Positions 4,353 to 42,290 of a stretch of 64,000 nt of DNA are shown in pieces. The number at the start of each line of letters is the position of its first letter. Position 1 is the first letter of the stretch. The DNA lies in assembly GCA_964509365.1 (NCBI GenBank), contig CAZDWN010000003.1:134412-198411 (forward strand), read 5' to 3'. This DNA comes from an uncultured Pseudomonadales bacterium. GTDB taxonomy: Bacteria > Patescibacteriota > Microgenomatia > UBA1400 > UBA12028. The position numbers and the translations under genes are program-made. The notes below the pieces were generated by a model. The model saw only the letters and a list, made by a program, of their open reading frames with translations. It searched no databases and was not told the origin of the DNA.

Positions 4353-5567
4353 TCATTTCGTTGCTAAGAGAGGGTACGTTGAAAGTATCTCAAGTAGTGG
4401 ATCGCCGGCAACGATATCATAGTTACAGATTTTAGATGTTCCATTTGTAAAATCCCATGGGAGATATCCTACTATTCCTGCCTGAAATTGTAAGTTCATT
4501 TTTGCTCTCATCTTATTGGCTCGTTCGCCTAACTTCATACAGCCAATGCCATTTTCTGAAGCTTTTATTCCTGCCTCACCGATAAAGAGTGGTTTTTGTA
4601 TGAGCTTCATTTGATTTAAGCGTTTTTGCAGTCCATTCCATTGATCACCCGGCATCACTTGTGTCTCTCGTCCATAGTCATGAAAACTTGCAATATCAAT
4701 GCCAGGGCTTTGATGGACATATTGATAATCTTCAAAAACCGTACCGCACTGTCCGTCTCCTATGGTACCTGAACTCACCATATGATTTGGATCAATTTTC
4801 TTTATTTCGCCTCCGACCGTGTCAAAAAATGTACGAAGAGCCTTGCGGCTCCGAGACTCATTTGAGCAGGTAATCGCAGAGAAGCATTGAGAGCCTTTTC
4901 CCTTGGCGCAGTCGACGGCGATCGGTTCATTGATTGGCTCCCACATTGCAATTGACTTGGAGTCTTTATACCGACTGACAATGGCTTTCACATAGTCAAA
5001 ATATGACAGCGGAGTCAGACCGTTTCCAAGATCATTCACGATTGTGCGGAATCCACCTTCGTACCAAGCGATGTCTCGCCAATGGCCATCATCGCACGTG
5101 CCCGACTGATCTCCGATAGTGAGGATCAATCTTGTCCCGCTTTTCGACGCTTCATTGACAAGCCTGTCCAGGCCGGTCCAGTCGATCTGTTTGGTTTTTG
5201 TATTTACTGCCATACCGCCTTGAAATGCCCAAGTACGGACGACGGAGTTTGGTCTCAACGAAGACAGGAACTGATTAATGTCTTTCTCCATGCCGCCACA
5301 CCCTGCACTCACGCCCTCCATACCTCCGAGATGATACGCATTCACCCCAACGAATCGATATGGATCACCATTAAGGTAGACTTTGGTGCCGTACGCGCTG
5401 AGGAACGGGGTGTTTTTGACTGGGCTTGTGGGGTTAGGCTGGGTGGAAATCCCTAAAATATTTGAATGATGAGTCAGCGTGAACCCTATCGAGATGTATG
5501 CAAGCAGCAAGAAGAATGTTCCCACAAAGAGAACTGGCACGTAGACACTGGTTTTTTTCTTTTTCAT
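4353..5567 (-). CDS. glycoside hydrolase family 5 (clan GH-A, beta-mannanase/cellulase-like), secreted
   Basis: N-terminal signal/TM. Conserved acid/base motif WEPINEP and nucleophile motif FIGEAG, characteristic of GH5. Start taken at MKKKKTS (second Met). Confidence 0.6.
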   Translation of the reverse strand: MKKKKTSVYVPVLFVGTFFLLLAYISIGFTLTHHSNILGISTQPNPTSPVKNTPFLSAYGTKVYLNGDPYRFVGVNAYHLGGMEGVSAGCGGMEKDINQFLSSLRPNSVVRTWAFQGGMAVNTKTKQIDWTGLDRLVNEASKSGTRLILTIGDQSGTCDDGHWRDIAWYEGGFRTIVNDLGNGLTPLSYFDYVKAIVSRYKDSKSIAMWEPINEPIAVDCAKGKGSQCFSAITCSNESRSRKALRTFFDTVGGEIKKIDPNHMVSSGTIGDGQCGTVFEDYQYVHQSPGIDIASFHDYGRETQVMPGDQWNGLQKRLNQMKLIQKPLFIGEAGIKASENGIGCMKLGERANKMRAKMNLQFQAGIVGYLPWDFTNGTSKICNYDIVAGDPLLEILSTYPLLATK

Positions 5568-5645
5568 GAAGCAAAAGTGTATCATCTAGTCTCGATAGTG
5601 AAGGTAAGAAAAGATACTTACTGATTGCTTACAATTTTTTTACAC

Positions 5646-5722: not shown

Positions 5723-7936
5723 ATGTCATCTCCGCAACTTTCAATTGTCATTCCAGTTTTTAATGAAGAACTCACGATTCACACTTTATTGAAACGATTG
5801 GACACTTCTTTGCGTCAAGCAAATATTTCCTATGAAGTGATCGTTGTCGATGACAATTCATCGGATCAAACTATTGAGATACTCGGCCAACTACGCCATA
5901 AATATCCACTCACTGTCTTTCGAAAAACAAATGTTCAAACGCAAGGGAAAGGGTATTCGCTCGTGTATGGGTTTACGCAGGCGAGAGGCGAATTCTTTGC
6001 CATGATTGACGCGGATTTATCCTACCCACCCGAAGCAATTCCGCTCATGGTTGAAAGAATCAAAGCTGGTGCCGGAGTTGTCATCGCAGACCGTGAGAAA
6101 AAAAATACGGGATTTGTTCGGAAACTGATGAGCTCGACCTTTCACACACTCTTTCTACGTGGCTTGCATGGCGTAGATCTGGATGTCCAGTCTGGATTGA
6201 AAGTTTTTCGATCAGAAATATTGCGTCGCGTGCAGTTGCATCCGACGGCATGGGCATTTGATCTAGAGCTCTTACTTCAAGCCCAGCGAGGCGGATACTC
6301 TATTGAGTCAGTACCCATCGTATTCGAAAAGCGCTCCCATCGCAGATCGACAACCAACCGCACAAAACAGGCGTATCAAATCGGTTCAAATTCCATTCAG
6401 CTTAAATCCAAAGAGATCGAACCTATCTTATTTACTTCAGAAATGGAAAAGAAGGAAGGCCACGGCTTCCATTACAATGGCGATAAATATATCCCACATA
6501 CACATCTGCCGTCGCATGAGACAGCCTTATACCGTCTCTCACGAAATCAAAAAACATTCCTATTTGTCTCTTTCATTCTCTTGTCGCTCTGTCTCTTTTA
6601 TTTTTGGCACACGACCTTCACGATCCTTATCGCTATCTTGACCTCGGTCTACTTTGCAGATCTGCTCTTCAATTTGTATCTTATCTATCGGAGTTTTTCG
6701 AAGCCACCTGAATTGACGGTGAGTAAGAAAGAAATTGATGAAGTGCCCGATCATATGTGGCCGACATACACAATCTTCTGTCCGTTGTATAAAGAGCCTG
6801 AGGTCATCCCTCAATTTGTGACTGCGATGAGTCAGCTCGATTATCCCAAAGATAAATTACAGATCATGCTTCTTTTAGAAGCGGACGATACCGAGACAAT
6901 CAATAAGGCAAGGATGATGATGTTACCTCCGTATTTTGAGATTGTCGTCGTACCACATTCATTGCCGAAGACAAAGCCAAAAGCATGCAACTATGGATTA
7001 CTGTATGCAAAAGGGGAACTCGTCGTCATTTACGACGCCGAAGATGTCCCTGACCATGATCAATTGAAAAAAGCGGCAATCGCATTTCGCAAGAGCCCGG
7101 GAAATATCGCCTGCGTCCAAGCGAAGCTCAATTTTTATAATCCCCATCAGAATATCTTGACGAGAGCGTTTACCGCGGAATACTCACTTTGGTTTGATCT
7201 TGTGCTGACGGGCTTACAATCGATCAACGCTCCAATTCCACTTGGCGGTACTTCAAATCATTTCCGCACGAAACAGCTCCGTGCGTTTCATGGATGGGAT
7301 GCATTTAATGTGACTGAAGATTGCGACCTCGGAATACGATTGATTAAACGAGGGTTTTATACTGGTGTCCTCGATTCCACCACACTCGAAGAAGCAAATA
7401 GTGATTTGCCGAATTGGTTCAGTCAACGATCTCGTTGGATCAAAGGCTATATGCAGACCTACCTGGTGCATATGAGACGTCCCGGAGAATTTATCCGAAG
7501 TTGGCGCGAGCCTCACGCGATCACGTTTCAACTCGTCGTCGGTGGGAAAATCCTCTCAATGTTTATCAATCCCTTTATGTGGATGCTCACGATCGCGTAT
7601 TTTGCGTTACGTCCGATCGTCGGTCCTGCGATCGAATCCTTCTATCCGACGCCAGTACTGTATATGGCGGTGTTTTCACTCGTCATCGGAAATTTCTTGT
7701 ATGCCTATTACTACATGATCGGATGTGCGAAACGAGATCATGATGAACTCATCAAATATGTTTTCTTGGTCCCACTGTACTGGCTGGCGATGAGTCTCGC
7801 TGCGTGGAAAGCGTTTCGTGAGCTCATCGTCCGTCCTCATCACTGGGCAAAAACGAAACATGGTTTGCATCTCATCAGTAAGAAAGGTCTCGCACAAACA
7901 ACAGAACGGATCGGGGAGAACATACGCTTTGCGTAA
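5723..7936 (+). CDS. fused dual-domain family-2 glycosyltransferase: N-terminal DPM1-like GT2, transmembrane core, C-terminal processive synthase-like GT2 (QxxRW)
   Basis: N-terminus LSIVIPVFNEELTIHTLLKRL...VIVVDDNSSDQT...IDADLSYPPE is polyprenol-phosphate-sugar-synthase-like. Residues about 340-737 carry IFCPLYKEPEV, DAED, TEDCDLG and QRSRWIKGY (QxxRW) with flanking TM helices, as in cellulose/chitin/hyaluronan-synthase-like enzymes. Confidence 0.7.
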   Translation: MSSPQLSIVIPVFNEELTIHTLLKRLDTSLRQANISYEVIVVDDNSSDQTIEILGQLRHKYPLTVFRKTNVQTQGKGYSLVYGFTQARGEFFAMIDADLSYPPEAIPLMVERIKAGAGVVIADREKKNTGFVRKLMSSTFHTLFLRGLHGVDLDVQSGLKVFRSEILRRVQLHPTAWAFDLELLLQAQRGGYSIESVPIVFEKRSHRRSTTNRTKQAYQIGSNSIQLKSKEIEPILFTSEMEKKEGHGFHYNGDKYIPHTHLPSHETALYRLSRNQKTFLFVSFILLSLCLFYFWHTTFTILIAILTSVYFADLLFNLYLIYRSFSKPPELTVSKKEIDEVPDHMWPTYTIFCPLYKEPEVIPQFVTAMSQLDYPKDKLQIMLLLEADDTETINKARMMMLPPYFEIVVVPHSLPKTKPKACNYGLLYAKGELVVIYDAEDVPDHDQLKKAAIAFRKSPGNIACVQAKLNFYNPHQNILTRAFTAEYSLWFDLVLTGLQSINAPIPLGGTSNHFRTKQLRAFHGWDAFNVTEDCDLGIRLIKRGFYTGVLDSTTLEEANSDLPNWFSQRSRWIKGYMQTYLVHMRRPGEFIRSWREPHAITFQLVVGGKILSMFINPFMWMLTIAYFALRPIVGPAIESFYPTPVLYMAVFSLVIGNFLYAYYYMIGCAKRDHDELIKYVFLVPLYWLAMSLAAWKAFRELIVRPHHWAKTKHGLHLISKKGLAQTTERIGENIRFA

Positions 7937-7948
7937 CAAAAAAATCAC

Positions 7949-9196
7949 ATGAAAATTCACTCAAAACACGTCCTCAGTGGCAGCTTTCTCGTTTCAGCCG
8001 TAATTGGCTCAAACTTTCTCAACTTTTTATTTAACGCCTTGCTGGGTCGTTGGCTCTCATTTGAAAACTTTGGACTGATCACGCTTATCATCACCTTTTA
8101 TTACGTTTCCTCAATATTCACCAATGCTCTCTCAGGGACTATCAATTTTTCAGTCTCGACGATGGAAGGAAACAATGAGCAAGACAGGGCAGAGGTGTTT
8201 TATCCAATGGTCGTCAAAAAAAGTTTGATGGCAGCACTCATCGGGAGCGGTCTGTGGGCAATTTGCATTCCACTCCTGATGACATTTTTTCATTCTGGTT
8301 CTCCGTGGCCATTTCTCGCTTTTATACCGATACTCATCGGCAGTGTCTACGCGTATGCCACGATCGGATATTTCCAAGGTTCACTTCGATTTGGAAGTGC
8401 CGGTGCTGTCATGATCGCGGAGCCGATTGTCAAACTCATCGCAGGAATAGCCCTCACTCTCGTTGGGCTCGGTGTCCTTGCTTACCTTTCGCTCCCGCTC
8501 TCACTCGTCGGCGCGGCGGCGATCGGTTTCATCCTCATCCAGAAAACGAACACTCGATCAAAGTCGGTCTCTTCAAAGTCTTTTGCTTTTCCTTGGCATT
8601 TCTTTCTGACTTCGCTGGCAGCCGGTATTGGATCGACAGTCTTTTTTAGTCTCGATATTTTCTTAGTGCGACACTACTTTAGTTCTACGTTGAGTGGTCA
8701 ATATGCGTTAGTCTCTTTGATCGGGAAGATGGTGTACTTTTTTGCCGTGCTTCCAAATATATTTACGCTTCCGATTGTAGCCAGGACAAGAGATGAGAGT
8801 GAGATCATGCGACTTTTTTTGATCGTCCTCGGATCGACGATCGCCCTTTGTGTCGTCGCTTGGGTTGGACTTGTCGGCCTGGGTTGGTTGTTCGTGCCGT
8901 TACTCTTTGGAGCAAAAGCAAATGCAATCCTCACGCTCCTGCCACAGTATGTATTGGGAATTTCGCTCTATTCTATTGCAAGTGTCATCATTGGATTTCA
9001 GGTCGTGAAGAAACGGTACATTTTTGGATATATTTCACTTCTTACTGGAATCATATTTGCGATCTTGATGATGATGGGGCATTCATCTCTCTCTGTAGTG
9101 ATCTCGAACCTTGTTCTTACTTGTCTATTACTTTTGTCAGGTGTAATAGTCCTATATTTATTCTACCCAAGGAGGGCCGTGTCTCATGCAAAATAA
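7949..9196 (+). CDS. polysaccharide biosynthesis protein / oligosaccharide flippase (Wzx/MOP superfamily)
   Basis: 415 aa with about 12-14 TM helices; sits within the glycan gene cluster. Confidence 0.55.
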   Translation: MKIHSKHVLSGSFLVSAVIGSNFLNFLFNALLGRWLSFENFGLITLIITFYYVSSIFTNALSGTINFSVSTMEGNNEQDRAEVFYPMVVKKSLMAALIGSGLWAICIPLLMTFFHSGSPWPFLAFIPILIGSVYAYATIGYFQGSLRFGSAGAVMIAEPIVKLIAGIALTLVGLGVLAYLSLPLSLVGAAAIGFILIQKTNTRSKSVSSKSFAFPWHFFLTSLAAGIGSTVFFSLDIFLVRHYFSSTLSGQYALVSLIGKMVYFFAVLPNIFTLPIVARTRDESEIMRLFLIVLGSTIALCVVAWVGLVGLGWLFVPLLFGAKANAILTLLPQYVLGISLYSIASVIIGFQVVKKRYIFGYISLLTGIIFAILMMMGHSSLSVVISNLVLTCLLLLSGVIVLYLFYPRRAVSHAK

Positions 9197-10124
9197 ACTA
9201 CCAATCTCCATCTGCGTACCTGCGTATAACGAAGGTAAAAACATCTCACTGATTTTGGAAGCGTTGACGAGTCAAGTGACAGATCGTGTGCAGATCAATA
9301 AGATTGTAGTAGTTTCCTCTGGGAGTACTGATAGCACTGAGGATCTCGTGACGCAGTTCATGCGTACAGACAAACGGGTCTTTTTAATTCGTCAACAAAA
9401 ACGCGCTGGCAAAGCGTCAGCGATCAATGCATTTTTAAAAATTATCGATGATCCAGTCGTCGTGATCGAGAGTGCAGATACGATCCCGAATCCAGATGCG
9501 ATCGAGCTGCTCTGTCAGCCTTTTCTGGACAATCCAGAAATCGGGATGACCGGTGGGGCACCAATCCCAGTCAATGATGAAAACACGTTTACCGGATACA
9601 TTGTGCATACCTGGTGGTGGTTCCATCGAAACATTCCTCGTTTTGGAGAAATTATTGCCTATCGCAATCTTTTACCTTCGATCTCAGAGACCACCGCGGT
9701 CGACGAGGCATTTATCCAAGCCAAGCTCATCCAATTGGGGTATAAAGCCGTACATGTCGACCAAGCTATTGTTCGCAATAAAGGACCGGAAACGGTCAAA
9801 GATTTGATCAAGCAACGTCGAAGGATATTCAACGGACACTCACGACTGTACCACGAGGAGGGCGTCAAGATTGACAACATGACCAAGTCAAGTCTGCATC
9901 TTCTCAGTGTCTACAAACCAAAAAGCTTCAAACATTTTTGCTGGTTAATTGGCGGTGTAGGGATCGAAGTCTATGCGAGACTGCTGGGTACCTATGATGC
10001 GAAAGTACTCAATATCAATCCTTTTGTGTGGGACACTGCAAAAAGCACAAAGAATGTCGCGAAGAAACATGGTGACGAAAGTAACGTTCATTCACTTGCA
10101 CTCTCGCAGGAACTTGCCCAATGA
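9186..10124 (+). CDS. glycosyltransferase family 2
   Basis: ISICVPAYNEGKNISLILEAL...VVVSSGSTDST... GT-A fold signature. The start overlaps the flippase stop by 11 nt. Confidence 0.65.
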   Translation: MQNKLPISICVPAYNEGKNISLILEALTSQVTDRVQINKIVVVSSGSTDSTEDLVTQFMRTDKRVFLIRQQKRAGKASAINAFLKIIDDPVVVIESADTIPNPDAIELLCQPFLDNPEIGMTGGAPIPVNDENTFTGYIVHTWWWFHRNIPRFGEIIAYRNLLPSISETTAVDEAFIQAKLIQLGYKAVHVDQAIVRNKGPETVKDLIKQRRRIFNGHSRLYHEEGVKIDNMTKSSLHLLSVYKPKSFKHFCWLIGGVGIEVYARLLGTYDAKVLNINPFVWDTAKSTKNVAKKHGDESNVHSLALSQELAQ

Positions 10125-11230
10125 TTGTCTTCTTAAATTTTGCACCGCTATCTTTTGGTGGAGGAGCCGAGCGCTGGATGGCATCTGTCGCATCAAGCCT
10201 CTCGAATGAAGAAGCAATCGAAGTCTTGCAGGTCGATCACTCCATCTCAAATATTTACTCTCGATTTGTGCTACATCGGAATTTTGATATTCGAGTCGAT
10301 ACATCAAGACTCGCATTCACACAGCGTTTGATCTCACTCTCGAGTTTTATTCCGTTCACCAGTTCTTGGCGACAGCTGCGACGCTCGATACGAGATGCAC
10401 GGACGATCTACACGCGCCTGGAACTCAATGAAATTTTGATCTTGTGCTATTTTGGTGGGTATGAAGTCATACGAAAGACTGTCATCGGACTCCACTCACC
10501 ACTCGAATATAACGCTGATGCGATCTCACTGTTAGGGAAATTTCATAATGCCGTCTACGGCTCGAGATTTATCCGAGCGGTTTTACGGGACGCCAAGCAT
10601 ATCCATGTACTCAATCCGGATCAGGAACGAAAAATGATGGTGACCTATCAGCTTCGCAATGTCGTCAGGATCCCAAACTTTATTGATGATGTGTCTGGAA
10701 AGATGAAAGACTCCGATCCGAGGTATCTCAATGTGTGTTTCCTAGGAGAGTTGGACAAACGCAAAGGAGCAGATGTCTTACTCGAACTCATAGAGAGAAG
10801 CCCAGACTTCATTCGCTATACCATCGCAGGTGACGGATATTTGAAGCAAGAGTATCAAAGACTTCCGAAGCCACAAGTAAAATATCTTGGATACTTGCAG
10901 CATGACAAAATCAGCGAGGTGCTCGAATCTACTGATGTGCTGTTCATGCCATCGCGGGCCGAAAGCTTTTCGCTCGTCTCGCTTGAAGCACTGGCTCATG
11001 GAGTGATCGTCGTATGCTCTTCAAAGATTTCCCCAAATACTTTGGAAGATTACCTCGTCATCAGTAAGAAAAATACCATTGAAGATTATGTAAAGATCCT
11101 CAGTGACTTGCACAAAGAGAAGAAAAAAGGTACGTTGCACTCTCGTCGCGCGAAAATCGCCAAAGAAATCAACAACAAATTTTCAAAAACAGCCACGATA
11201 AATAGACTCAAGAAAGAAATTTTTGATTGA
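10121..11230 (+). CDS. glycosyltransferase family 4 (GT1-like, retaining)
   Basis: C-terminal E..E motif region FMPSRAESFSLVSLEALAHGVIVVCS typical of GT4. 4-nt overlap with the upstream gene. Confidence 0.6.
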   Translation: MIVFLNFAPLSFGGGAERWMASVASSLSNEEAIEVLQVDHSISNIYSRFVLHRNFDIRVDTSRLAFTQRLISLSSFIPFTSSWRQLRRSIRDARTIYTRLELNEILILCYFGGYEVIRKTVIGLHSPLEYNADAISLLGKFHNAVYGSRFIRAVLRDAKHIHVLNPDQERKMMVTYQLRNVVRIPNFIDDVSGKMKDSDPRYLNVCFLGELDKRKGADVLLELIERSPDFIRYTIAGDGYLKQEYQRLPKPQVKYLGYLQHDKISEVLESTDVLFMPSRAESFSLVSLEALAHGVIVVCSSKISPNTLEDYLVISKKNTIEDYVKILSDLHKEKKKGTLHSRRAKIAKEINNKFSKTATINRLKKEIFD

Positions 11231-12044
11231 ACTCATGAAACCAAAATTAAGCATCATCATGTCTACTTACAATGACGAGAAATACATTCGTCAGGCATTA
11301 CAAAGTATTTTGGATCAGACTCTTCAAGAGTGGGAACTCATAATCATAAACGACAAATCTACAGATTCGACTGAATCAATCATTTTTGAAATGTTTAAAA
11401 ATGATAAGCGACTGAAATATCTGAAAAACTCCGAACAAAAGGGAGTTACGATAAATATTATCAAATGCATGGAAATGGCAAAGACTGAGCTAGTCGCTCG
11501 CCTTGATGGTGATGATTATTGGCTCAGTCCGAGGAAATTGGAACGACAATACAAAATAATGGTTGGAGACCCATCAATTGGAATATTAGGTACTTGGGCT
11601 AAAGTGGTAGATCCAGATGGAAAAACTCTGTACAAAATAGAGTATCCCATCGCTGATGAGCGTATGAGACCACGAATCCTTCGTGAAAATCCATTTGTCA
11701 CGAGCAGCATCATGTTTCGAAAGCCCAGTAACTATGAGCTGAGTTTCTTTGACCAAGTGAATAGATATGCCGATGATTTCAATCTAGTACTTCACATAGG
11801 ATTGAAAAAGAAGTTTCAAAATCTAAATCGATATTACTCAGCTTATAGAATGAATCCCGCTGGCATCAGTCAAAGTAAACATAAACTGCAGATTGATGAC
11901 ACCATGAGGACAGCAAAAGCTTTCAAAAAAGATTATGACGGGTACAGGTTTGCGAAGTTACTTTGGACACTCCGTAAACATTACCCCGTTTGGCTTAAAG
12001 GAAAACTGTCCATGCGAATAAAGAAACTCATGAAATTTTATTAA
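11223..12044 (+). CDS. glycosyltransferase family 2
   Basis: LSIIMSTYNDEKYIRQALQSILDQTLQEWELIIINDKSTDST...RLDGDDYW (DxD). Confidence 0.65.
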   Translation: MIELMKPKLSIIMSTYNDEKYIRQALQSILDQTLQEWELIIINDKSTDSTESIIFEMFKNDKRLKYLKNSEQKGVTINIIKCMEMAKTELVARLDGDDYWLSPRKLERQYKIMVGDPSIGILGTWAKVVDPDGKTLYKIEYPIADERMRPRILRENPFVTSSIMFRKPSNYELSFFDQVNRYADDFNLVLHIGLKKKFQNLNRYYSAYRMNPAGISQSKHKLQIDDTMRTAKAFKKDYDGYRFAKLLWTLRKHYPVWLKGKLSMRIKKLMKFY

Positions 12045-12061
12045 TTTGGAGTGGAGATTTT

Positions 12062-12907
12062 ATGAAAATGACTAAAAGAGACAGGATGTTCAGTTTTTTG
12101 GAAAATTTACTACAGTGCGCCAAATTCAACGGTATCTTAATTGCATTTCGAATACATTTCCATTATGTAGTAAGTAGTTTTTCTCTCTCTAAAGATTCCA
12201 AAAAGTACCGTTTTTTGAAGTTCGATGTTGAGTTTATGGATGTTCAGTCTCTTCGAAATATGTTGTTTGAGCTTTTTGGCTTTAACTCTTACTTCTTTAA
12301 GTCGGAACAAATCAATCCAGTAATAATAGATATTGGAGCAAACATTGGGGATTCCATTTTTTACTTCAAATGGCTATATCCCGAAGCTGAAATATTTGCA
12401 TTTGAGCCTCATCCCGAAGCGTTTGCAATGCTAAAAAGAAATATTAAAAAAAATTCCTTCTCCAAAATTCATCCCTACAATGTTGGACTTTCTGATAAGA
12501 AACAGATTGTTGAGTTATTTGTGGGTGAGAGTAGTATTTTAGGTTCCTCAACGATTTTATCCGACGTAAAAAGAATGGATGGAATGAAAGAAGTCAGAAA
12601 GATAAGATTGGAGAAAGTGAGTACTCTAAAAGAGATCACTAAGTTAAAAAGGATAGATTTAATAAAAATTGATATCGAAGGAGCAGAATCTTCACTTTTT
12701 AATGACCTTCAGAAACTTTTCCCAGTTACAAAAAAGGTAATTATAGAATTTCATTTAGTCCCTGAAATCAGAAATAACTCTTTCGATAATATTGTAAATC
12801 TTCTTCGTAAACATGGATTAGAACCGAATATTGCGGGATTTTATCGTAGTGAAAAGAATGAAGCTACTCCTTTTGGCTCGTTATTGATTGCTGATAGAAA
12901 AGTATGA
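12062..12907 (+). CDS. FkbM family methyltransferase
   Basis: [15 protein letters not shown]...[10 protein letters not shown]...[12 protein letters not shown] motif set of FkbM-type SAM methyltransferases. Confidence 0.6.
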
Positions 12908-13425
12908 TGCAAATCCTAAAAAAAATTGAATACATCCCATCATACATTCGAGCGCGCATTCTAAGTGTGAGGTTTGGCACGATTGGAAATACGGTTTTTA
13001 TCAGAGAAAATTTCACCTATAGTTCGCCAAAAAATATTAGATTGGGTCATCATATCTACATAAATCACCATGTTGATTTGGGTGCCGACGCCTCTGGAAT
13101 TGAAATTGGAAATTTTGTCCAAATTGCACCTTACGTGACAATTATGAGCGCTATGCATGAACATGAGAGAACTGATATCCCAATGTACGAGCAGAAAGGT
13201 TATATATCCAAGAAAGTGATAATTGAAGATGATGTCTGGATTGGGTTGCGAGCGATAATTTTACCTGGAGTTAAAATTGGGAAGGGAGCAATAGTGGGAG
13301 CTGGATCAGTCGTCACCAAGAATGTGGAGAGTTACTCCGTTGTGGGAGGAGTTCCTGCAAAATTTATTCGCTCCAGATTGGTATCAAGAAATAATGGAAT
13401 TAAAGTGAGCATGAAGAAAACTTGA
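12904..13425 (+). CDS. sugar O-acetyltransferase, hexapeptide-repeat (left-handed beta-helix) family
   Basis: Repeated hexapeptides: [33 protein letters not shown]. Confidence 0.6.
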
Positions 13426-13548
13426 AGACATTTCAGGCGTGCGCTTGGTTACTTACCAAGCTCTTACAGTCAAAATGCCACAATAGTTCATAATTGATCA
13501 GTTATCTACAAGAGTATTTCATACGAGTAAAGATTGGACAGTGAACCG

Positions 13549-15153
13549 ATGTTTAATAAATTTTTTGCAAAACAACGTGAATCTGAGTACACACTTCCAG
13601 TAATGCTTTTTCTGGTTATCTTAAGTATTGTTGTCTTCCTCGTATATTTTAACCTCGGGAAACATCTGCCATACGCAGACTCGATGTCAAGGTTAGATAT
13701 TGCACGTAAAGTTGTTGATAATCTCAATCCTGGATTAGCGCAACTAGGATCCGTTTGGTTGCCACTACCTCAACTTCTAATGGTTCCTTTTGTCTGGAAT
13801 AATTATTTGTGGCAGAGCGGAATTGCAGGTGCGATAATGTCAATGAGTTCATTTATACTTGGAGGCTTCTTCCTTTATAAGTCTGCATTTCTTATAAGTA
13901 AAAGGTTTATCCCATCTTTTTTCACACTTTGTATTTATGCTTTGAATGTCAATGCTTTATACCTACAGACCACTGCCCTTTCTGAATGCGTTTTTATGTG
14001 TGCGCTATTCGGCGTCATGTATTTTTTCTTGCTATGGATAAATACTTATAAGCGCAGGCATCTACTTTTTGCTGCAATGGCAGTTTCTGCAATCACACTC
14101 ATTCGTTACGAGGGTATCGCTTTACTATTAGCTTCAATCGGCTTTGTTGCTGTCTACAGCTACTATCATGACCGCAGTTACAAGAAACTTGAGGGACAAC
14201 TTATCATGTACTGCTGTGTCGCGTGTCTGGGCTTTGCTCTCTGGACACTCTATTTGACTGCAATTTTCGGCGATCCCTTATTCTGGCTTCGTTATTATGG
14301 ATTCGGTCCAAAAATAATAATTCCTGGTGCAACTGTGTCGGTTCCAACCCAGGCGAAACCATTTATGGCCGCTGTATGGCAGTACTTTACATCGGTGACG
14401 TGGATGTCGGGCATCATACCAATTGTATTTGCCGTCGTAGGAGTTTGGATTGGATTAATACGATCGTACTTTTCCAAGTCATGGAATATTTTAGTGATTC
14501 TCATTCCAATGTCGATCTACTTGCTCATGGTCATGACTCTTCGAAGAAACACTCCTATCGTGCAACCGAATCTCAGTATGGAAAACATCATGTCTACGAA
14601 GACAAGCACAATGACGGGATTCAATATCCGCTACGGGATCATGATGCTGCCTATGGTCGCGTTACTTACTATTTATGTTTTTGATATCAAAAAAACATAT
14701 TACATACCAGCAATAGTCTTGTTCGCGATTTTCACGATTCAAGTGGTAAATACGTACGTCCCTAGATTTTCTCCAATCTACGAGATTCCCTTCGCAATTG
14801 GGAAGAAACCGGACATTAGCATGGTTAAGTGGATGCAAAAAAACTATACGGGGGGATATATCATGATGAGCGCTTCAGGCTTTGAAGATCAAATGTTTTT
14901 AATGGGTTTTCCATACCGTACGTATATCCATGAAGGAGCAGGGAAATACTGGACTGAAGCGCTGGATCGTCCGGCACGATATGCCGACTACATAATAATC
15001 GATTTTAGCCGTGAATCAGACACATTAGCGAAGGAATTTAAGAATAAACAATACTGGAACTGGGACTACAATCTTGTGTGGGAAGAAAAGGGTAGCAATG
15101 CAAAAATCTATAAGATTAAGACTCATCCAGATATAATTATTCAAGCTAACTAG
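13549..15153 (+). CDS. GT-C-fold-like polytopic membrane glycosyltransferase candidate, paralog 1 of 3
   Basis: About 11 TM helices with a first-loop acidic motif YADSMSRLDIARK, then GLAQLGSVWLPLPQ. C-terminal periplasmic-type domain with YIHEGAGKYW. First ATG is at 13549; the track start at 13534 is TTG. Confidence 0.55.
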   Translation: MFNKFFAKQRESEYTLPVMLFLVILSIVVFLVYFNLGKHLPYADSMSRLDIARKVVDNLNPGLAQLGSVWLPLPQLLMVPFVWNNYLWQSGIAGAIMSMSSFILGGFFLYKSAFLISKRFIPSFFTLCIYALNVNALYLQTTALSECVFMCALFGVMYFFLLWINTYKRRHLLFAAMAVSAITLIRYEGIALLLASIGFVAVYSYYHDRSYKKLEGQLIMYCCVACLGFALWTLYLTAIFGDPLFWLRYYGFGPKIIIPGATVSVPTQAKPFMAAVWQYFTSVTWMSGIIPIVFAVVGVWIGLIRSYFSKSWNILVILIPMSIYLLMVMTLRRNTPIVQPNLSMENIMSTKTSTMTGFNIRYGIMMLPMVALLTIYVFDIKKTYYIPAIVLFAIFTIQVVNTYVPRFSPIYEIPFAIGKKPDISMVKWMQKNYTGGYIMMSASGFEDQMFLMGFPYRTYIHEGAGKYWTEALDRPARYADYIIIDFSRESDTLAKEFKNKQYWNWDYNLVWEEKGSNAKIYKIKTHPDIIIQAN

Positions 15154-15259
15154 TTTTTTAACTTATCATAAAATGTAAGGATCTTGTAAGAGAAGCTCAT
15201 GTAAAGTATGCTGAACTCCTAAAGTGTTTGTTCCATTCACTTCCCAGGGTAGCGCACTT

Positions 15260-16876
15260 ATGAGTTCTTTTTTCTCTACCTGTAAGGGTCATTTTAATAA
15301 ATATTTTGATCTTTACGTTGTAAGCTTTCTCCTTCTCATAAGCCTCTTTTGCACCTGGCATTTCTTTCGATCCGAAAAAATACTCCTCTATGGTGATTCA
15401 CTCTCACGGCTGAATATATCAAGAAAGATTTTTGACAATATAACTCCGGGATTAGCTCAAATTGGAAATGTTTGGCTGCCGCTACCTCAGTTGGCAATGA
15501 TGCCTTTCGTAGCTAACAACTTTCTTTGGCACACTGGACTAGCAGGATCGATTGTATCGGCACTCACTTTCGTTTTAGGCGGACTTTACTTATATCGTTC
15601 AATTTTTCTGCTATCTAAATCTAAAATCACAGGAGCTATATCAATATGCATTTATGCTCTTAACATTAATTTAATGTACTTACAGACTACAGCAATGTCA
15701 GAATCATTTTTCTTGTGTGCAGTCAGTGCATCAATTTACTACTTCATTAAATGGCTAAAGACGGGTAATAAGATTCATTTAATCCCAGCTGCGATTGCAG
15801 TAAGCGCTATGACATTGATTCGTTATGAAGCCTTGGGGTTCTTATTTGCCTCAATTCCAATGGTATTTATTTTTACACTTTATGAGAAAAGAAATTACCA
15901 TAAGGCGGAAGGCAATGCCATTGTCTACGCTAGTCTAGCCTGCCTGGGATTTGCTCTTTGGTCTTTATATTTGGCTGCCATTTTTGGTGATCCGCTATTT
16001 TGGAAAAACTACTATATTGGTACTCATGTACTTGGGGACAGTAATACTCAGCTACATATATTTACTCATCATTTAAACTTTATTGAGGCTGTTTGGAAAT
16101 ATTTAACGGCAGTAGTTTGGATGAACGGACTGATTCCAACCGCAATTGCTACTTTAGGAATTCCAATTCTTCTGTGGAAATCATACAAGCAAAAAAACTA
16201 TTACTTTCTCCCCGTATTGCTTTCATTCTCAATGTTCGCATTTATGGTGTTAACATTGCAACGTAACACTCCGATAGATCAACCTCAACTTAGTATTCAG
16301 GCTCTGCGCTCAGACAGTACAAGTAATTTCCCCGAATTCAACATCAGTTATGGCTTGCTCATGCTTCCGGTTATTGTTTTACTATTTTCTTACGCTTTTA
16401 ATACACAATACAAGCTGGTCAAAGTACTGCTTGTTCTGCTATTCTCCGTACAGGTTTACTCATATTTTTATCCGACTTATTCGGTCATTTACCAAATTCC
16501 AATAAGTATTGGTGATAACATCACTCAAGGTACACTTAAGGAAAAGCAGATGGTCGAATGGATGAAAACTAATTATGACAATGGCTACATCATGATAAGT
16601 GCCCTTAAACATGATCCTCAAATGTTACAGTTTGGATTAGATTACAGAAACTATATTCATGAAGGAACTGGAAAATATTGGAAAGAATCAACTAGAGATC
16701 CTCAGCGATATGCAAAATGGATAATATTTGATTCGTATAATAAAGATGATCAAGTTACGAAATATTTGTTTAAATCATTAAATCTGGACTTTTTTTACAT
16801 CAAAGTATATGACAATGATGGAATGTTCGTTTATAAGATTAAGACTCATCCTGACATCATAATTCCACAGAATTGA
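15260..16876 (+). CDS. GT-C-fold-like polytopic membrane glycosyltransferase candidate, paralog 2 of 3
   Basis: Colinear with paralog 1: YGDSLSRLNISRK, GLAQIGNVWLPLPQ, YIHEGTGKYW, and C-terminus KIKTHPDIII shared with paralog 1. First ATG is at 15260. Confidence 0.55.
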   Translation: MSSFFSTCKGHFNKYFDLYVVSFLLLISLFCTWHFFRSEKILLYGDSLSRLNISRKIFDNITPGLAQIGNVWLPLPQLAMMPFVANNFLWHTGLAGSIVSALTFVLGGLYLYRSIFLLSKSKITGAISICIYALNINLMYLQTTAMSESFFLCAVSASIYYFIKWLKTGNKIHLIPAAIAVSAMTLIRYEALGFLFASIPMVFIFTLYEKRNYHKAEGNAIVYASLACLGFALWSLYLAAIFGDPLFWKNYYIGTHVLGDSNTQLHIFTHHLNFIEAVWKYLTAVVWMNGLIPTAIATLGIPILLWKSYKQKNYYFLPVLLSFSMFAFMVLTLQRNTPIDQPQLSIQALRSDSTSNFPEFNISYGLLMLPVIVLLFSYAFNTQYKLVKVLLVLLFSVQVYSYFYPTYSVIYQIPISIGDNITQGTLKEKQMVEWMKTNYDNGYIMISALKHDPQMLQFGLDYRNYIHEGTGKYWKESTRDPQRYAKWIIFDSYNKDDQVTKYLFKSLNLDFFYIKVYDNDGMFVYKIKTHPDIIIPQN

Positions 16877-16880
16877 CGAT

Positions 16881-18407
16881 ATGAATATCGGGGAGAAAGT
16901 ATCGGAAGCTTTTAACGCAAAAATCATCTTCATCATTGCTTTCATTCTCTCCGTCTCCGCGTGGTGGATATCGTATTCTCACAACCTCGTCCTCGTGTAT
17001 AACGACGGTGCTTCGCATCTCAATATCGCTCGACGGATCCTCGATAACTACACTCCAGGTGTCGCTCAAATCGGTACCGTGTGGCTACCATTTCCTCACG
17101 TCATGATGTTTTTCCTGGCATGGAATGATTATCTGTGGCATACGGCACTCGCAGGCAGTCTCGTCTCAATGTCGGCATATATTCTCTGTGTTGTCTTCAC
17201 CTACAAGATGATCGTCGAGATCACCAATAAAAAAATTGCGGGTCTAGTCGGCTCGCTAGTGATCGCTCTCAACCCCAATTTGCTCTATTTGCAAACGACT
17301 CCGATGACGGAGACGCTGCTCCTCGCGACATTTGTCATGACTGGATATTATCTGTCTCGGTATATGAATACGAAGAAAGTGTCGTATTTGATCGCGACGG
17401 GGATCGCGGTGATGTTTTCGACACTCATCCGCTATGACGGATGGTTTTTATTTGCGTCATTACTCCTGCTCATCCCGATTTGGGAAGTGATCGGTCCGGG
17501 GAAAAAGAAAGCGGAAGGCAGTTTCTTTTTGTTCGCCTCTGTGGGAGGACTCGGTATCCTCCTATGGATCGTATGGAATTGGGCGATCTTTGGTCAGCCA
17601 TTGTATTTCCTTTTTGGAGAGTACTCAGCGTATGCACAACAGCGAGTCCTCAGTGGTGTCGGCCAGCTCCCGACGGAAAAAAATATCGTCAATGCATTCA
17701 CCTATTTCATGTGGGCAGTGGTCGATAACAATGGGATCGTCCTCGTCATCTCGTCACTCATCTCACTGGTGCTGATCCCATTTTTCATGGCAAATAAAAA
17801 ATACTTGCATGTGATCTTGGCTGTCCTCTCTCCGTTTGTCTTTAATATCATCGCCCTCTACGCGGGCCAGTCAGCCATGAACGTCCCACAAGCCGCAGTC
17901 AATCCTGGACTTTTTAATATCCGCTACGGTCTCGTCATGATCCCTGGGATAGCGGTGATCTTGGGAGTATTGGCAGGGAAGCTCAAATATTCTTGGATAC
18001 TCGTCGTGTTGGTATTGGTCGCGCAATCGTATCTGTTTGTGCAAGCAGGCAAGCCAATCACGCTCGTCGACGGACAGAACGGCCTCATCAACACCTACTA
18101 TACGGTGGAGGCAAGTAAGTGGCTCGCAGTAAATTATCAGGGAGGATTAATTCTCACGAGTCTCGCGAGTCATGATGCATTCGTCGCACGCGCTGGCATC
18201 CCCATGCGAAACTATATCCATGAAGGGAATGCTGGGTATTGGGAAAAGGCACTGGTAAGACCATCAGACACCATAGAATATATTACGGTCCTCACATTTC
18301 CTCCGGATAGTGTCTACAAAAAACTTGCTGACAATCTCGACTTTCAGACCAATTATGTGAAGATACACAATTATGAAAAATTTGAAATTTATAAGCGTCG
18401 TTGGTAG
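16881..18407 (+). CDS. GT-C-fold-like polytopic membrane glycosyltransferase candidate, paralog 3 of 3
   Basis: YNDGASHLNIARR, GVAQIGTVWLPFPH, YIHEGNAGYW; more diverged than paralogs 1 and 2. Confidence 0.55.
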   Translation: MNIGEKVSEAFNAKIIFIIAFILSVSAWWISYSHNLVLVYNDGASHLNIARRILDNYTPGVAQIGTVWLPFPHVMMFFLAWNDYLWHTALAGSLVSMSAYILCVVFTYKMIVEITNKKIAGLVGSLVIALNPNLLYLQTTPMTETLLLATFVMTGYYLSRYMNTKKVSYLIATGIAVMFSTLIRYDGWFLFASLLLLIPIWEVIGPGKKKAEGSFFLFASVGGLGILLWIVWNWAIFGQPLYFLFGEYSAYAQQRVLSGVGQLPTEKNIVNAFTYFMWAVVDNNGIVLVISSLISLVLIPFFMANKKYLHVILAVLSPFVFNIIALYAGQSAMNVPQAAVNPGLFNIRYGLVMIPGIAVILGVLAGKLKYSWILVVLVLVAQSYLFVQAGKPITLVDGQNGLINTYYTVEASKWLAVNYQGGLILTSLASHDAFVARAGIPMRNYIHEGNAGYWEKALVRPSDTIEYITVLTFPPDSVYKKLADNLDFQTNYVKIHNYEKFEIYKRRW

Positions 18408-40178: not shown

Positions 40179-41753
40179 CTAGTGGAGGTCTATTTTGCGA
40201 TAGGTCACGAATGGGGCGATCGAAGCGACTTGCACGTATTGACCGGTCATGTACGCAGCCAATCCCGGATAGGGAGTCTTGTAGTTTGTATCGATGACAA
40301 TATATTTTGGCTTCATTTTTTCAAGGGCTTCGGTCGTCACATCAAATCCATTGAAATCTTGGATGTGGTAACTACTCGTATATTTCCCCGGTGGCAATCT
40401 TCTCGAGAGTGCATAGATCATCGGATAATCTCCCCACACAAAAATCCGATCGTCGGGAGTCGTCTGCGCTGCAATTCGCTCTGACGTCGCATACATCGCT
40501 GGAAGATTTGGATCAAAATGCGCATAGTATCGGTCTTTTGTCTGCCTGCGCGTGACAAACGAAATGTAGTTTTGATAGTACGGCATCAATGGATAGTACC
40601 AGAATTTGATCGCCCAAATCCCATAGATCCCGATGACCAGCGCGGTCACTGCAGTAAGGATTGGAAGGAGTCGTACTCCTTTGGAGTGCTGCAAGAGAGA
40701 TTGTCCAAGAAAGACGACGAGCAACGAAGCTGGAGGGATCACTTGGATCAAGTAGTGAGGATAGGGCCGCTCAGCTAAGAAAGCTCCAAAAAGAGTCGCC
40801 GCAAACCACATTGCTAAAAATGTGAGTTTGTTTCCGTTCTTTTTTGAGAGAAGTAGCAATGCAATCATCGCGATCCCAAATCCCACCGCTCGATTTTTCA
40901 GTCCTGATGATCCGACATTGCTTGCGGCATGCGTGCCAGTCGCCCAAGATGATAAGTATCCGATGTTTTGAGCAAATGCAGCACTCACATATTCTTTGCC
41001 GACACCCTTGGCACTGTAATACGCAAAGGAGAGGAGAATAGGAAGGAGGAAGGCCATCGAAAAAGAGATAAGTGGCAAGAGATAAGAGCCAAGATGAAAA
41101 TCTCTTTTTTGTACACGCCAAACAGTGAATGGCACAACGATCAAAAAGAAAAAGCCGGCGGCAAACGCATCAAAGAGCGATGGAACTTTGATCAAAAATG
41201 CAAGCGAAAAAAAGAAACCGGAGAGCACAATATTTTTCATTTGCCATTTGTCATTGGTCATTTGTCTCCATAGGAGGTACATCCCGACTATGGCAGGCAT
41301 CACCATGAAGATCTCCCCATTGGCGATTGCGCCTTCCGCGAAAAACGGGATGATCGCAAAAAGCACAGTTGCGATCGTAGAGTAAGTCACTCTTGGAAAT
41401 TGGATTCCCCCGATACTCGTAAACCCAGGGTGATCTGCGTCATCCAATAGCAGATGTGCCAGTCGTTCAAATGCGACGATCGCGACGCTATTCCATGCGA
41501 GTAAAAAAAATCGAAACCAGAAGACGGAACCAGTGAGCGCCGCCATGAAGTAGATCACCGGTGGCTTGTTGTCATGAATATCTTTGTACAGTGTCAGCCC
41601 ATGTCGGATCGCATTGCCGAGCGTGAGATAGATCCCTTCGTCACCGTACCAATAGGGTTCGAGGAGGCTCGGGAGCCTCAGGATCGCACACGCACACAGT
41701 ATCCAAATCAAATATTCATGTCGAAGTAAGAAAGCTTTTATTTTTAGAGGCAT
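40179..41753 (-). CDS. GT-C family membrane glycosyltransferase (ArnT/PMT-like, GT39/GT83-type)
   Basis: First-loop motif WYGDEGIYLTLGNAI (the DE motif of ArnT/PMT enzymes) and 11-13 TM helices. Confidence 0.6.
   Translation of the reverse strand: MPLKIKAFLLRHEYLIWILCACAILRLPSLLEPYWYGDEGIYLTLGNAIRHGLTLYKDIHDNKPPVIYFMAALTGSVFWFRFFLLAWNSVAIVAFERLAHLLLDDADHPGFTSIGGIQFPRVTYSTIATVLFAIIPFFAEGAIANGEIFMVMPAIVGMYLLWRQMTNDKWQMKNIVLSGFFFSLAFLIKVPSLFDAFAAGFFFLIVVPFTVWRVQKRDFHLGSYLLPLISFSMAFLLPILLSFAYYSAKGVGKEYVSAAFAQNIGYLSSWATGTHAASNVGSSGLKNRAVGFGIAMIALLLLSKKNGNKLTFLAMWFAATLFGAFLAERPYPHYLIQVIPPASLLVVFLGQSLLQHSKGVRLLPILTAVTALVIGIYGIWAIKFWYYPLMPYYQNYISFVTRRQTKDRYYAHFDPNLPAMYATSERIAAQTTPDDRIFVWGDYPMIYALSRRLPPGKYTSSYHIQDFNGFDVTTEALEKMKPKYIVIDTNYKTPYPGLAAYMTGQYVQVASIAPFVTYRKIDLH
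41246..41264 (+). repeat. 19-nt exact repeat copy B (ATTTGTCATTGGTCATTTG) within a TTGNCAT heptad array, inside coding sequence
   Basis: TTTTTCAT TTGCCAT TTGTCAT TGGTCAT TTGTCTCCAT. The reverse complement encodes QMTNDKWQM of the GT-C protein. Confidence 0.5.
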
Positions 41754-41768
41754 AGTGAACAGTTGTGA

Positions 41769-42290
41769 CTACGATTCTTCAATAATTTGCACTATTTCAA
41801 CTTTAGTTGAAAGTCTTGTGTTAGGCAAATAGAAAACGATCACTCTCACTGGTAGAGGAGAGGGTAGAGTTGCGAAGCTCATTAGTCTATCGTACTGGAA
41901 CTTTGAAATATGAACGCGAATGGGTTTAGACAAGTCTTGGAGCTTGATAAAATATTGCTGAAAAGTTCTTCCACCTCCTCCATGTATGACTTCCACAACA
42001 CCTTCATATCGTTGTTCAGAAGAAAATAGGTCTGCGAAGCCATTCTTTACTTGATTGGCTAGCAAGATAATAAACGTCAGAAGTACCGCAAAACCTAGGA
42101 GCGGACCTTGTGCATTCAGAAGTACAACAAAGAGTGATATGGCAGTAATAGAAGTTGCAAATGCTTCGATCCCTACGAGTGTTTTTAGACTGTCTGTAGA
42201 TATTTTCCCCAATATAAATGCAAAAACTATATCAAATATAAAATTTGTGAAAAAACCGAGTATGAAAAGTAAGTAAAACAGCTCGGTCAT
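41769..42290 (-). CDS. membrane-anchored hypothetical protein
   Basis: N-terminal hydrophobic region plus a soluble domain; 4-nt overlap with the upstream GT2. Confidence 0.35.
   Translation of the reverse strand: MTELFYLLFILGFFTNFIFDIVFAFILGKISTDSLKTLVGIEAFATSITAISLFVVLLNAQGPLLGFAVLLTFIILLANQVKNGFADLFSSEQRYEGVVEVIHGGGGRTFQQYFIKLQDLSKPIRVHISKFQYDRLMSFATLPSPLPVRVIVFYLPNTRLSTKVEIVQIIEES

Follow-up and report, generated by a model that had tools for sequence, protein, structure and literature searches.

A polyprenol-phosphate glycosyltransferase-like module fused to a cellulose synthase-like module within a modular, putative surface-polysaccharide system of Patescibacteria

We analysed a 64,000-nucleotide window of DNA from an uncultured bacterium (GenBank assembly GCA_964509365.1, contig CAZDWN010000003.1, positions 134,412 to 198,411 of the forward strand), deposited as Pseudomonadales and placed by GTDB in Patescibacteriota (Microgenomatia; UBA1400; UBA12028). 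The gene at 5723..7936(+) of this window encodes a single membrane protein in which a lipid-sugar-synthase-like enzyme is joined to a cellulose-synthase-like enzyme. The open reading frame (ORF) starts with ATG and runs through 737 amino acids with no internal stop. Pfam finds two separate glycosyltransferase family 2 (GT2) regions, PF00535 at residues 7–168 (E=4e-38) and PF13641 at residues 347–575 (E=9e-35), the latter accompanied by PF13632 at 434–629 (E=3.5e-25) and a weak match to PF13506 (GT21) at 408–573 (E=8e-6). A first-pass annotation had proposed one polypeptide ordered as a DPM1-like GT-A domain, a transmembrane (TM) segment and a synthase-type GT2 with a QRSRW motif and further TM helices, and Pfam, an AlphaFold2 model and Foldseek all bear out that order. 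The model, built with 70 homologues as input, has a mean pLDDT of 87.8 and a pTM of 0.86.

The boundaries between the parts needed revision. The amino-terminal module (N-module), placed at about residues 1–230, holds up and was refined to residues 1–235 (5723..6427(+)); it consists of a polyprenol-phosphate (Pol-P) glycosyltransferase-like GT-A domain with helices at 131–149 and 213–229. Not one but two TM helices separate the glycosyltransferase domains in the model and by hydropathy (TM1, ~278–296; TM2, ~298–316), and both active sites therefore lie on the cytoplasmic side. The second module (C-module), which had been placed from about residue 340, instead begins at about residue 240, as its stand-alone homologues start at query residues 222–265. 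It opens with a linker and the TM hairpin (6428..6757(+)), including a beta-hairpin, G246xGFHxxG253, and residues L262 and A268, and here the mobile C-module starts. The synthase-type GT-A domain follows (6758..7513(+), residues 346–597), with Q568RSRW572 on an interface helix, and then a second membrane part (7514..7936(+), residues 598–737) that comprises TM3, TM4, an interface-type helix, a W708xKTxHG714 loop and a basic tail. This tail, and relatives in which a family 4 glycosyltransferase (GT4) is fused shortly after the C-module (P0137), indicate that the C terminus is cytoplasmic.

We next compared the protein with its relatives, taken as the best 120 matches in a database of 5.8 billion proteins. 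These cover 94–100% of the query at 54–79% identity (mostly 54–63%), are mostly 725–770 amino acids long and carry the same Pfam pair. The 120 best relatives are thus full-length fusions, and the joined modules are not an artefact of assembly or of a frameshift or stop between the domains, which had been named as a possible undoing of the annotation. The closest named relative is from a Candidatus Woesebacteria metagenome-assembled genome (MAG; 71% identity), and the labels among the 120 include Woesebacteria, Levybacteria, Roizmanbacteria, Saccharimonadales and 'Patescibacteria group'. From these relatives, a Microgenomatia-type genome of the candidate phyla radiation (CPR) is the most likely source of the window. 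Within the family, the C-half is better conserved than the N-half (column identity of roughly 0.8–0.9 versus 0.5–0.7).

The best solved relative of the N-module is the dolichyl-phosphate (Dol-P) mannose synthase PfDPMS (5mlz; E=8e-30, 31% identity, root-mean-square deviation (rmsd) 2.3 Å over 234 columns), followed among structure matches by ArnC and GtrB. Its metal/donor motif D96ADL(S/Q)Y101PP aligns to D89ADLQH94 of PfDPMS. In that enzyme R117, R131 and S135 position the Dol-P phosphate and R202 is the A-loop arginine (PMC5526996); these align to R124, R133, S137 and R204 of the N-module, respectively. Across 70 homologues, D96, D98, R124 and R204 are present in all 70, Q100 and R133 in 67, and S137 in 50 (with Thr in a further 4), and the DADLQxPP motif is kept family-wide. 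The N-module therefore retains D96-A-D98 together with the lipid-phosphate residues and A-loop arginine of Pol-P glycosyltransferases and, by these alignments, is not a degenerate GT2 domain, a second way in which the annotation might have failed. K178 is not conserved, and an invariant D180 has no equivalent in DPMS. The residue after the motif glutamine is an invariant tyrosine. It corresponds to the sugar-contacting histidine of DPMS and to an asparagine in ArnC by alignment; the GtrB equivalent is an aspartate (PMC5526996). Since the sugar-contact position is this tyrosine, the sugar that the N-module transfers cannot be read from the sequence.

The N-module itself lacks a TM anchor: it stops near residue 235, past its second interface-type helix, and the TM hairpin was assigned to the C-module because stand-alone C-modules carry it, along with the beta-hairpin. 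Human DPM1 also lacks a TM anchor and is held by a partner protein. The module scores below all NCBIfam equivalog cutoffs, with the AglJ model spanning all of it (residues 6–239, E=1.6e-18) at a subthreshold score. The copy in the window reads DADLSYPP, with serine at position 100 in place of the metal-ligand glutamine found in 67 of the 70 homologues, and has glycine at position 118, where 65 of 70 have aspartate. Even the relative with 79% identity has neither of these two changes (Q100S, D118G). In total, the window copy deviates at 5 of the 65 N-half positions that are conserved in at least 85% of the family (G77, S100, G118, R207 and T210) but at only 2 of the 211 such positions in the C-half.

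The C-module carries the complete motif series of a processive synthase: C353PLYxE, E386/D389, K416TKPKA, D438AED441, G508GTSNHF, N529VTEDxDLG and Q568RSRW572. DAED, GGTSNHF, NVTEDxDLG and QRSRW are invariant in the 70 fused homologues and in a set of 27 C-modules from within and outside the CPR; in the same two sets E386/D389, D438AED441, T531ED533 and Q568RSRW572 are invariant or nearly so, and within residues 568–572 of the family Q568, R569, R571 and W572 never vary. Against solved structures, a C-module profile finds BcsA as the closest match (E=7e-23), then PcManGT and hyaluronan synthase (HAS), and the BcsA match covers the glycosyltransferase domain and runs on past the QxxRW helix into the membrane part. 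Foldseek with the AlphaFold2 model returns BcsA at E=2e-17, HAS with a TM-score of up to 0.59 relative to the target and the minimal-fold PcManGT with 0.62–0.66 relative to the target. The C-half thus has a GT-A domain between TM helices, with interface helices, in a fold like that of solved synthases. Membership in two named synthase families was rejected, as the protein scores 89 bits against a cutoff of 699 for the cellulose synthase equivalog CelA and 99 bits against 422 for the PgaC equivalog (synthase of poly-N-acetylglucosamine, PNAG).

The membrane part is rich in fixed residues. TM1 has no invariant residue, and TM2–TM4 and the last helix have many polar and aromatic ones: Y310, F311, D313 and N317 are invariant in TM2, K609, N616, W620, T623 and Y626 are conserved in TM3 (~604–628), N657, Y660 and Y662–664 in TM4 (~643–666), and Y686, W687 and S691 in the hydrophobic interface-type helix at 676–698. 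The W708xKTxHG714 loop is invariant in the family and resembles a gating loop. Taken together, these residues are the pattern expected of a sugar-conducting path, although as evidence for one they are indirect.

When each GTDB species was represented by a single genome, at least 594 species-level genomes proved to encode a relative. The fusion is common and belongs to the commonest large glycosyltransferases of Patescibacteria. Gene context was compiled for 80 loci out of these genomes. The N-module is fused to the C-module in about 45 of the 80; the other loci have a C-module without N (46–68% identity) and include Chloroflexota, Actinomycetota (for example, a complete Paraconexibacter genome), Bacillota and Omnitrophota. 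Many full-length fusions with 48–55% identity and CPR-like gene order (L003, L007, L010–L014, L017, L018, L021–L024 and others) belong to MAGs that bear the title 'uncultured Gammaproteobacteria' or 'Bdellovibrionales', and these titles look like taxonomic mislabels rather than true occurrence in Proteobacteria. In one Saccharimonadales MAG (L005) the cassette has been amplified locally: three copies of the fusion occur in a 12.8-kb stretch, and a GT-C gene comes after each of two of them.

An exhaustive search of 1.84 billion cluster representatives gave 2,657 matches at E≤1e-30, and we assigned architectures to the best 150 of these using local profiles with spot checks against Pfam. The C-module stands alone in 48, although some of these entries may be metagenomic fragments. 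It is preceded by one to five copies of the MshEN domain in 40, by the N-module alone in 20 (the window arrangement), and is followed by a GT-C domain in 17, by a Wzx-like flippase in 7 and by the N-module, in reversed order, in 4. Longer chains have the order N-module, C-module, Wzx in 10 (some with a further GT4; about 1,560–1,610 amino acids) or N-module, C-module, GT-C in 3, and GT-C precedes the C-module in 1. Wzx is therefore joined to the C-module in 17 representatives and GT-C in 21; GT4 domains are joined to it in P0121, P0122, P0124, P0127, P0137 and P0140. Seven chains of 1,560–1,611 amino acids (P0121, P0122, P0126, P0130–P0132 and P0139) combine the N-terminal GT2, synthase, Wzx-like flippase and GT4, and such giants would in effect carry an entire glycan pathway on one polypeptide.

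The N-module is missing from about three quarters of the 150 representatives, including all that bear MshEN, a receptor domain for cyclic di-GMP (c-di-GMP; PMC5013675) that lies N-terminal to the C-module in non-CPR relatives. Where present, its position varies: it may be N-terminal, C-terminal, a separate gene or joined to GT-C. On a neighbour-joining tree of C-modules, the MshEN forms and GT-C fusions group together, and intermixed branches carry the C-only, N–C, C–Wzx and N–C–Wzx forms, which argues for repeated fusion and fission. Judged from these architectures, the C-module is the conserved core of the family and fuses readily with a variety of other modules.

In the window, the fusion gene comes first in an array of overlapping or closely spaced genes on the same strand, from 5723 to 18407(+). 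Twelve base pairs after it lies a gene for a 415-amino-acid Wzx-like flippase of the MOP family (7949..9196(+); PF01943, E=9.5e-8, above the gathering score), which is of the MOP/Wzx and not of the canonical GtrA type. By tblastn, 29 loci have a homologue next to the C-module or joined to it, and profile-based analysis of gene order gives about 30. A soluble-type GT2 of 312 amino acids (9186..10124(+)) was recognised by Pfam and is a conserved member of the cluster, with orthologues of 63–67% identity that occupy the corresponding place in L028, L011, L030 and L032. It is followed by a GT4 of 369 amino acids (10121..11230(+); PF00534, PF13692) and, all by Pfam, another GT2 (11223..12044(+)), an FkbM-type methyltransferase (12062..12907(+)) and a hexapeptide acyltransferase (12904..13425(+)). 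The genes from 11223 to 13425 are likely glycan-tailoring members of this operon-like array. The G+C content falls to 0.35 at 12001–14000, a span that covers the methyltransferase, the acyltransferase and the first GT-C paralogue, compared with 0.42–0.54 elsewhere. None of the other 80 loci has a counterpart of the methyltransferase or the acyltransferase, and this may therefore be a recently acquired tailoring cassette. Pfam scans of the cluster genes revealed no initiating enzyme of the WecA or WbaP type.

The array ends with three tandem multi-TM paralogues (13534–15153, 15224–16876 and 16881–18407, all on the plus strand) that share 28–30% identity with one another. Their matches to PMT_2 in Pfam are weak and a family profile search of the PDB yielded no sequence-detectable relative, so we tested the fold by structure prediction. 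The AlphaFold2 model (pLDDT 92.7) confirms a GT-C fold for these proteins as far as a predicted structure can: the top Foldseek matches are all GT-C enzymes (STT3/OST, DPY19, ALG9/12, ArnT, PglB, AglB, PMT, Aft, Emb and PimE), transferases that use polyprenol- or lipid-linked donors. Homologues bear PF13231 or PF02366 and are named GT39 or ArnT-like, and the family has an invariant aspartate, D42, in its first loop. The presence of three paralogues suggests that they carry out three distinct transfers outside the cytoplasm or differ in the acceptors they recognise.

About 30 of the 80 loci have GT-C next to the synthase or joined to it, and a GT-C or Wzx gene lies directly downstream of the synthase in most of the 80. 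Non-CPR loci almost invariably have the order MshEN–C fusion then GT-C; CPR loci have the N–C fusion then GT-C, or the N–C–Wzx fusion then GT2 (and in some GT4), or both as in the window. In five Chloroflexota loci (L057, L060, L061, L055 and L056) the C-module and GT-C share one ORF. Single chains that tie these partners together include N–C–Wzx with or without GT4, C–GT-C, N–C–GT-C and a GT2–GT-C–GH5 chain, the last with a glycoside hydrolase family 5 (GH5) domain.

Divergent from the fusion gene, 4353..5585(-) encodes a GH5-like protein with an N-terminal membrane anchor and NEP and GEAG catalytic motifs. All eight of its PDB matches are beta-mannanases or mannosidases, the best being a tomato enzyme (1rh9; E=4e-9). 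GH5 is rarely adjacent as a separate gene, and a homologous domain is found at the C terminus of the GT-C protein in L058, L062, L080 and L047. In L062, from a 'Candidatus Nephthysia' (Dormibacterota) MAG, a stop-to-stop ORF of 1,106 amino acids (L062:7290-10607), immediately 3' of the C-module gene, joins a Pol-P-type GT2, a GT-C and a mannanase-like GH5. A gene like GH113, another beta-mannanase family, adjoins the synthase in four Chloroflexota loci (L057, L060, L055 and L056). Farther along the window, 60222–63539 holds an enzyme of the UDP-glucose/GDP-mannose dehydrogenase family, a UXS-like epimerase/dehydratase and a strong match to GDP-mannose 4,6-dehydratase (PF16363, E=1.9e-134), and the organism therefore has a pathway to GDP-mannose and 6-deoxyhexose. 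Mannanase-type hydrolases, this dehydratase and the DPMS-like N-module offer a lead, and only that, towards a mannose-containing beta-glycan with a beta-mannan-like backbone as the product.

Two further regions of the window were noted. The minus-strand genes at 40179–43783 form a second, unrelated set: a TM GT2 (42287–43783(-)) with PTYKEP, EDAD, PEDY and QIKRW motifs, a 173-amino-acid membrane protein beside it (41769–42290(-)) and a 524-amino-acid multi-TM protein (40179–41753(-)) with a GT-C-like-looking N terminus (YWYGDEGIY...HDNKPPVIY), which compares to the GT-C family with an hhalign probability of only 22% and has no PDB match. The GT2 of this set had been called a paralogue of the C-module. 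That holds only at the level of the superfamily: hhalign recovers a shared motif order (PxYKEP, DAD, ED, QxxRW) at a probability of 10% (E=0.003) and BLASTP aligns 12 identities in 39 positions, which points to common GT2-synthase ancestry and not to close paralogy. At 22488–28483(-), two very large ORFs of 1,096 and 948 amino acids overlap by about 140 bp beside a PEGA+SH3 protein; the larger has no Pfam match, and both may be surface proteins.

What might this assembly do? Synthases with QxxRW and TED motifs polymerise nucleoside diphosphate (NDP)-sugars in the cytoplasm and translocate the chain, and enzymes of the DPMS/GtrB/ArnC type make Pol-P-monosaccharides. Once flipped, lipid-linked donors of this kind are used by GT-C enzymes outside the membrane, as in three-component systems (PMC13390465). 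On this basis we propose, at about even confidence, that the C-half builds a beta-glycan and exports it and that the N-half makes a Pol-P-sugar, which is flipped and used by GT-C enzymes on the outside. The cytoplasmic GT-A domain of the C-module would extend a beta-linked chain from an NDP-sugar in the manner of cellulose or hyaluronan synthase, and the chain would be threaded outwards along a path formed by TM2–TM4 and the interface helices. The N-module, held at the membrane by the TM hairpin of the synthase, would load polyprenol phosphate with a single sugar at the cytoplasmic face. This lipid would be flipped, probably by the neighbouring Wzx-like protein, and the GT-C enzymes could then draw on it as the donor for decorating or further building up the exported polymer or some other acceptor at the surface, with the membrane-anchored mannanase-like GH5 trimming or processing the polymer. 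The identities of the domains, the conservation of their catalytic motifs, the topology, the GT-C fold and the links by fusion and adjacency are results of the analysis; polymer export, the use of the N-module product by GT-C and the identities of the sugars are the parts of this scheme that we infer. The MshEN domains of non-CPR relatives are what one would expect of regulated exopolysaccharide synthases (PMC5013675; NfrB is a precedent, PMC8669469) and, like the mannanase-type hydrolases that accompany the synthase, speak for a synthase-like C-module.

The annotation had suggested that the fusion could couple donor formation to polymerisation. Its view of the N-half as a synthase of a lipid-linked sugar agrees with our analysis; the user of the product, however, seems to be GT-C and Wzx rather than the fused synthase, because the synthase has an NDP-sugar-type active site on the cytoplasmic side and the gene context points to GT-C and Wzx.

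Several observations weigh against the division of labour that we propose. Q100S, D118G, G207R and K210T may mean that the N-half of the window copy is weakened, altered or re-specified. Wzx-type and GT-C-type neighbours often occur in different loci, so the relay would not everywhere be one unit, and non-CPR pairs of C-module and GT-C have no Pol-P glycosyltransferase or flippase nearby. Fusion of a Wzx flippase to a synthase that exports its own product would be unexpected. Finally, the protein has only four clear TM helices, the pattern of a minimal synthase, for what would be a channel.

In a different scheme, the fusion would truly link primer formation to elongation: the N-module, likened to archaeal AglJ, makes a Pol-P-hexose, the C-module and the GT2 and GT4 enzymes extend it in the cytoplasm, Wzx flips the product and GT-C transfers or polymerises it. 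Single chains of the N–C–Wzx and N–C–Wzx–GT4 types are frequent, the AglJ model aligns over the entire N-module, albeit below its cutoff, the cluster shows no initiator of the WecA or WbaP kind, and the pTM of the model suggests fixed packing of the two glycosyltransferase domains. We nevertheless consider this scheme unlikely. As about three quarters of the representatives, including every MshEN-regulated one, have a C-module without N, the C-module appears able to start chains alone, and the N-module is also found after the C-module or on GT-C. To our knowledge, characterised QxxRW/TED synthases need no Pol-P-monosaccharide primer, and the invariant polar and aromatic TM residues suit a translocation path better than a mere anchor.

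A hybrid route, to which we assign a rather small probability, would have the synthase build its chain on, or pass it to, a Pol-P carrier primed by the fused N-domain, with GT-C completing or attaching the product outside. If true, this route would be neither classically synthase-dependent nor Wzx/Wzy-dependent and would be previously undescribed; it would be a core pathway of the CPR envelope and under the control of c-di-GMP in Chloroflexota and Actinomycetota.

Alternatively, the C-module could be a glycolipid or lipid-linked-sugar synthase like GT21, feeding its product to GT-C, with the N-module supplying a second lipid-sugar. GT21 ceramide and diacylglycerol glucosyltransferases also bear D, D, D and QxxRW. 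The weak PF13506 match, the structural likeness to PcManGT, the small number of clear TM helices and a pairing with GT-C that recalls classical gene pairs of lipid-sugar synthase and GT-C would all fit. We regard this as doubtful, since the similarity to the BcsA profile is much stronger and reaches into the membrane region, the WxKTxHG motif resembles a gating loop, the associated GH5 and GH113 hydrolases are endo-acting, and c-di-GMP receptor domains are typical of polymer synthases. A bifunctional co-polymerase similar to K4CP or PmHAS, alternating two sugars into the two-sugar repeat that the annotation had considered, is very improbable despite two intact GT-A active sites on the cytoplasmic side and a Foldseek alignment of the whole model to K4CP (TM-score a poor 0.23–0.26, rmsd ~19 Å), because the nearest relatives of the N-module are all lipid-phosphate glycosyltransferases whose phosphate-binding triad it keeps, and because the N-module is far less conserved than the C-half, variable in position and dispensable in most members of the family.

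A full-text search of the literature returned no published description of the fusion, of MshEN–C-module proteins or of the pairing of this synthase with GT-C. Databases name family members 'glycosyltransferase', 'cellulose synthase/PNAG synthase-like' or 'XagB'; the last label (JGI) is uninformative, as XagB is defined only genetically and its product is unknown (PMC3609779). This agrees with the annotation, whose author was not aware of any characterisation of the exact arrangement; across other genomes, however, the fusion proves very common and not unusual. Each module is of a known kind, and their combination and the surrounding modular system form an uncharacterised variant. The family is very large and seems to be the core of a CPR surface-polysaccharide system.

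How CPR bacteria (Patescibacteria) build their surface is, in our assessment, poorly understood. Their cells are tiny and mostly episymbiotic, and the surface is needed for attachment to the host. The fusion, ordinary as a sequence object, offers an entry point to the biogenesis of the CPR envelope, and the repeated fusions to flippase, GT4, GT-C and hydrolase amount to an unusually explicit, sequence-encoded wiring diagram of a pathway. That the same core is linked to c-di-GMP in Chloroflexota, Actinomycetota and Bacillota points to a regulated exopolysaccharide system in those phyla that has so far gone unrecognised. The system would, in addition, be a compact model in which to study how lipid-linked decoration is tied to the making of a synthase-dependent polymer.

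Comparison with known systems sets the arrangement in context. Like the fusion, the class II polymerases K4CP and PmHAS have two GT-A domains per chain, but they are soluble or peripheral proteins whose two domains act on the same chain, whereas the window protein has a TM core. Membership in that class was rejected given this core, the poor structural superposition and the dispensable N-module. Escherichia coli NfrB is a GT2 exopolysaccharide synthase with an MshEN domain that makes the receptor glycan of phage N4 (PMC8669469). It shares with the non-CPR C-module relatives a GT2 with DxD, TED and QxxRW and the MshEN c-di-GMP receptor; in NfrB, however, MshEN is C-terminal, whereas the C-module family has one to five N-terminal copies and lacks the NfrA/YbcH context. 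The window protein itself, with 22% identity over 186 amino acids (E=0.002) and no MshEN domain, was rejected as an NfrB.

Closer parallels exist for each half. BcsA and class I HAS share with the C-half a GT-A domain between TM helices, the D, DxD, TED and QxxRW motifs and the interface helices, and the gating-loop-like WxKTxH(G) resembles FxVTxK. BcsA has 8 TM helices, the C-half about 4 plus interface helices and neither a PilZ domain nor a BcsB partner; BcsA responds to c-di-GMP via PilZ, whereas C-module relatives would be regulated via MshEN. We know of no canonical synthase system with the constant GT-C, Wzx-like flippase and Pol-P glycosyltransferase partners that are seen for the C-module. 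PfDPMS, GtrB and ArnC share with the N-half the DADLQxPP motif, the Dol-P phosphate-site residues, the A-loop arginine and two interface-type helices, but the N-half has no TM domain of its own and is anchored through its fusion to another enzyme.

As a whole, the locus resembles the three-component systems of extracytoplasmic glycosylation. Those with Wzx-type flippases include GacI–GacK–GacL and the archaeal AglD–AglR–AglS. As at the locus described here, where the flippase is a putative one, the three-component systems, among them GtrA/B/C, CsbB–GtcA–YfhO and ArnC–ArnEF–ArnT, encode a Pol-P glycosyltransferase, a flippase and a GT-C enzyme together (PMC13390465). The system of the window differs in that its Pol-P glycosyltransferase is covalently joined to the enzyme that would synthesise the acceptor polymer, in that its putative flippase is of the MOP/Wzx rather than the GtrA type, and in that relatives of the fusion also draw the flippase, the GT-C enzyme and GT4 into the same chain.

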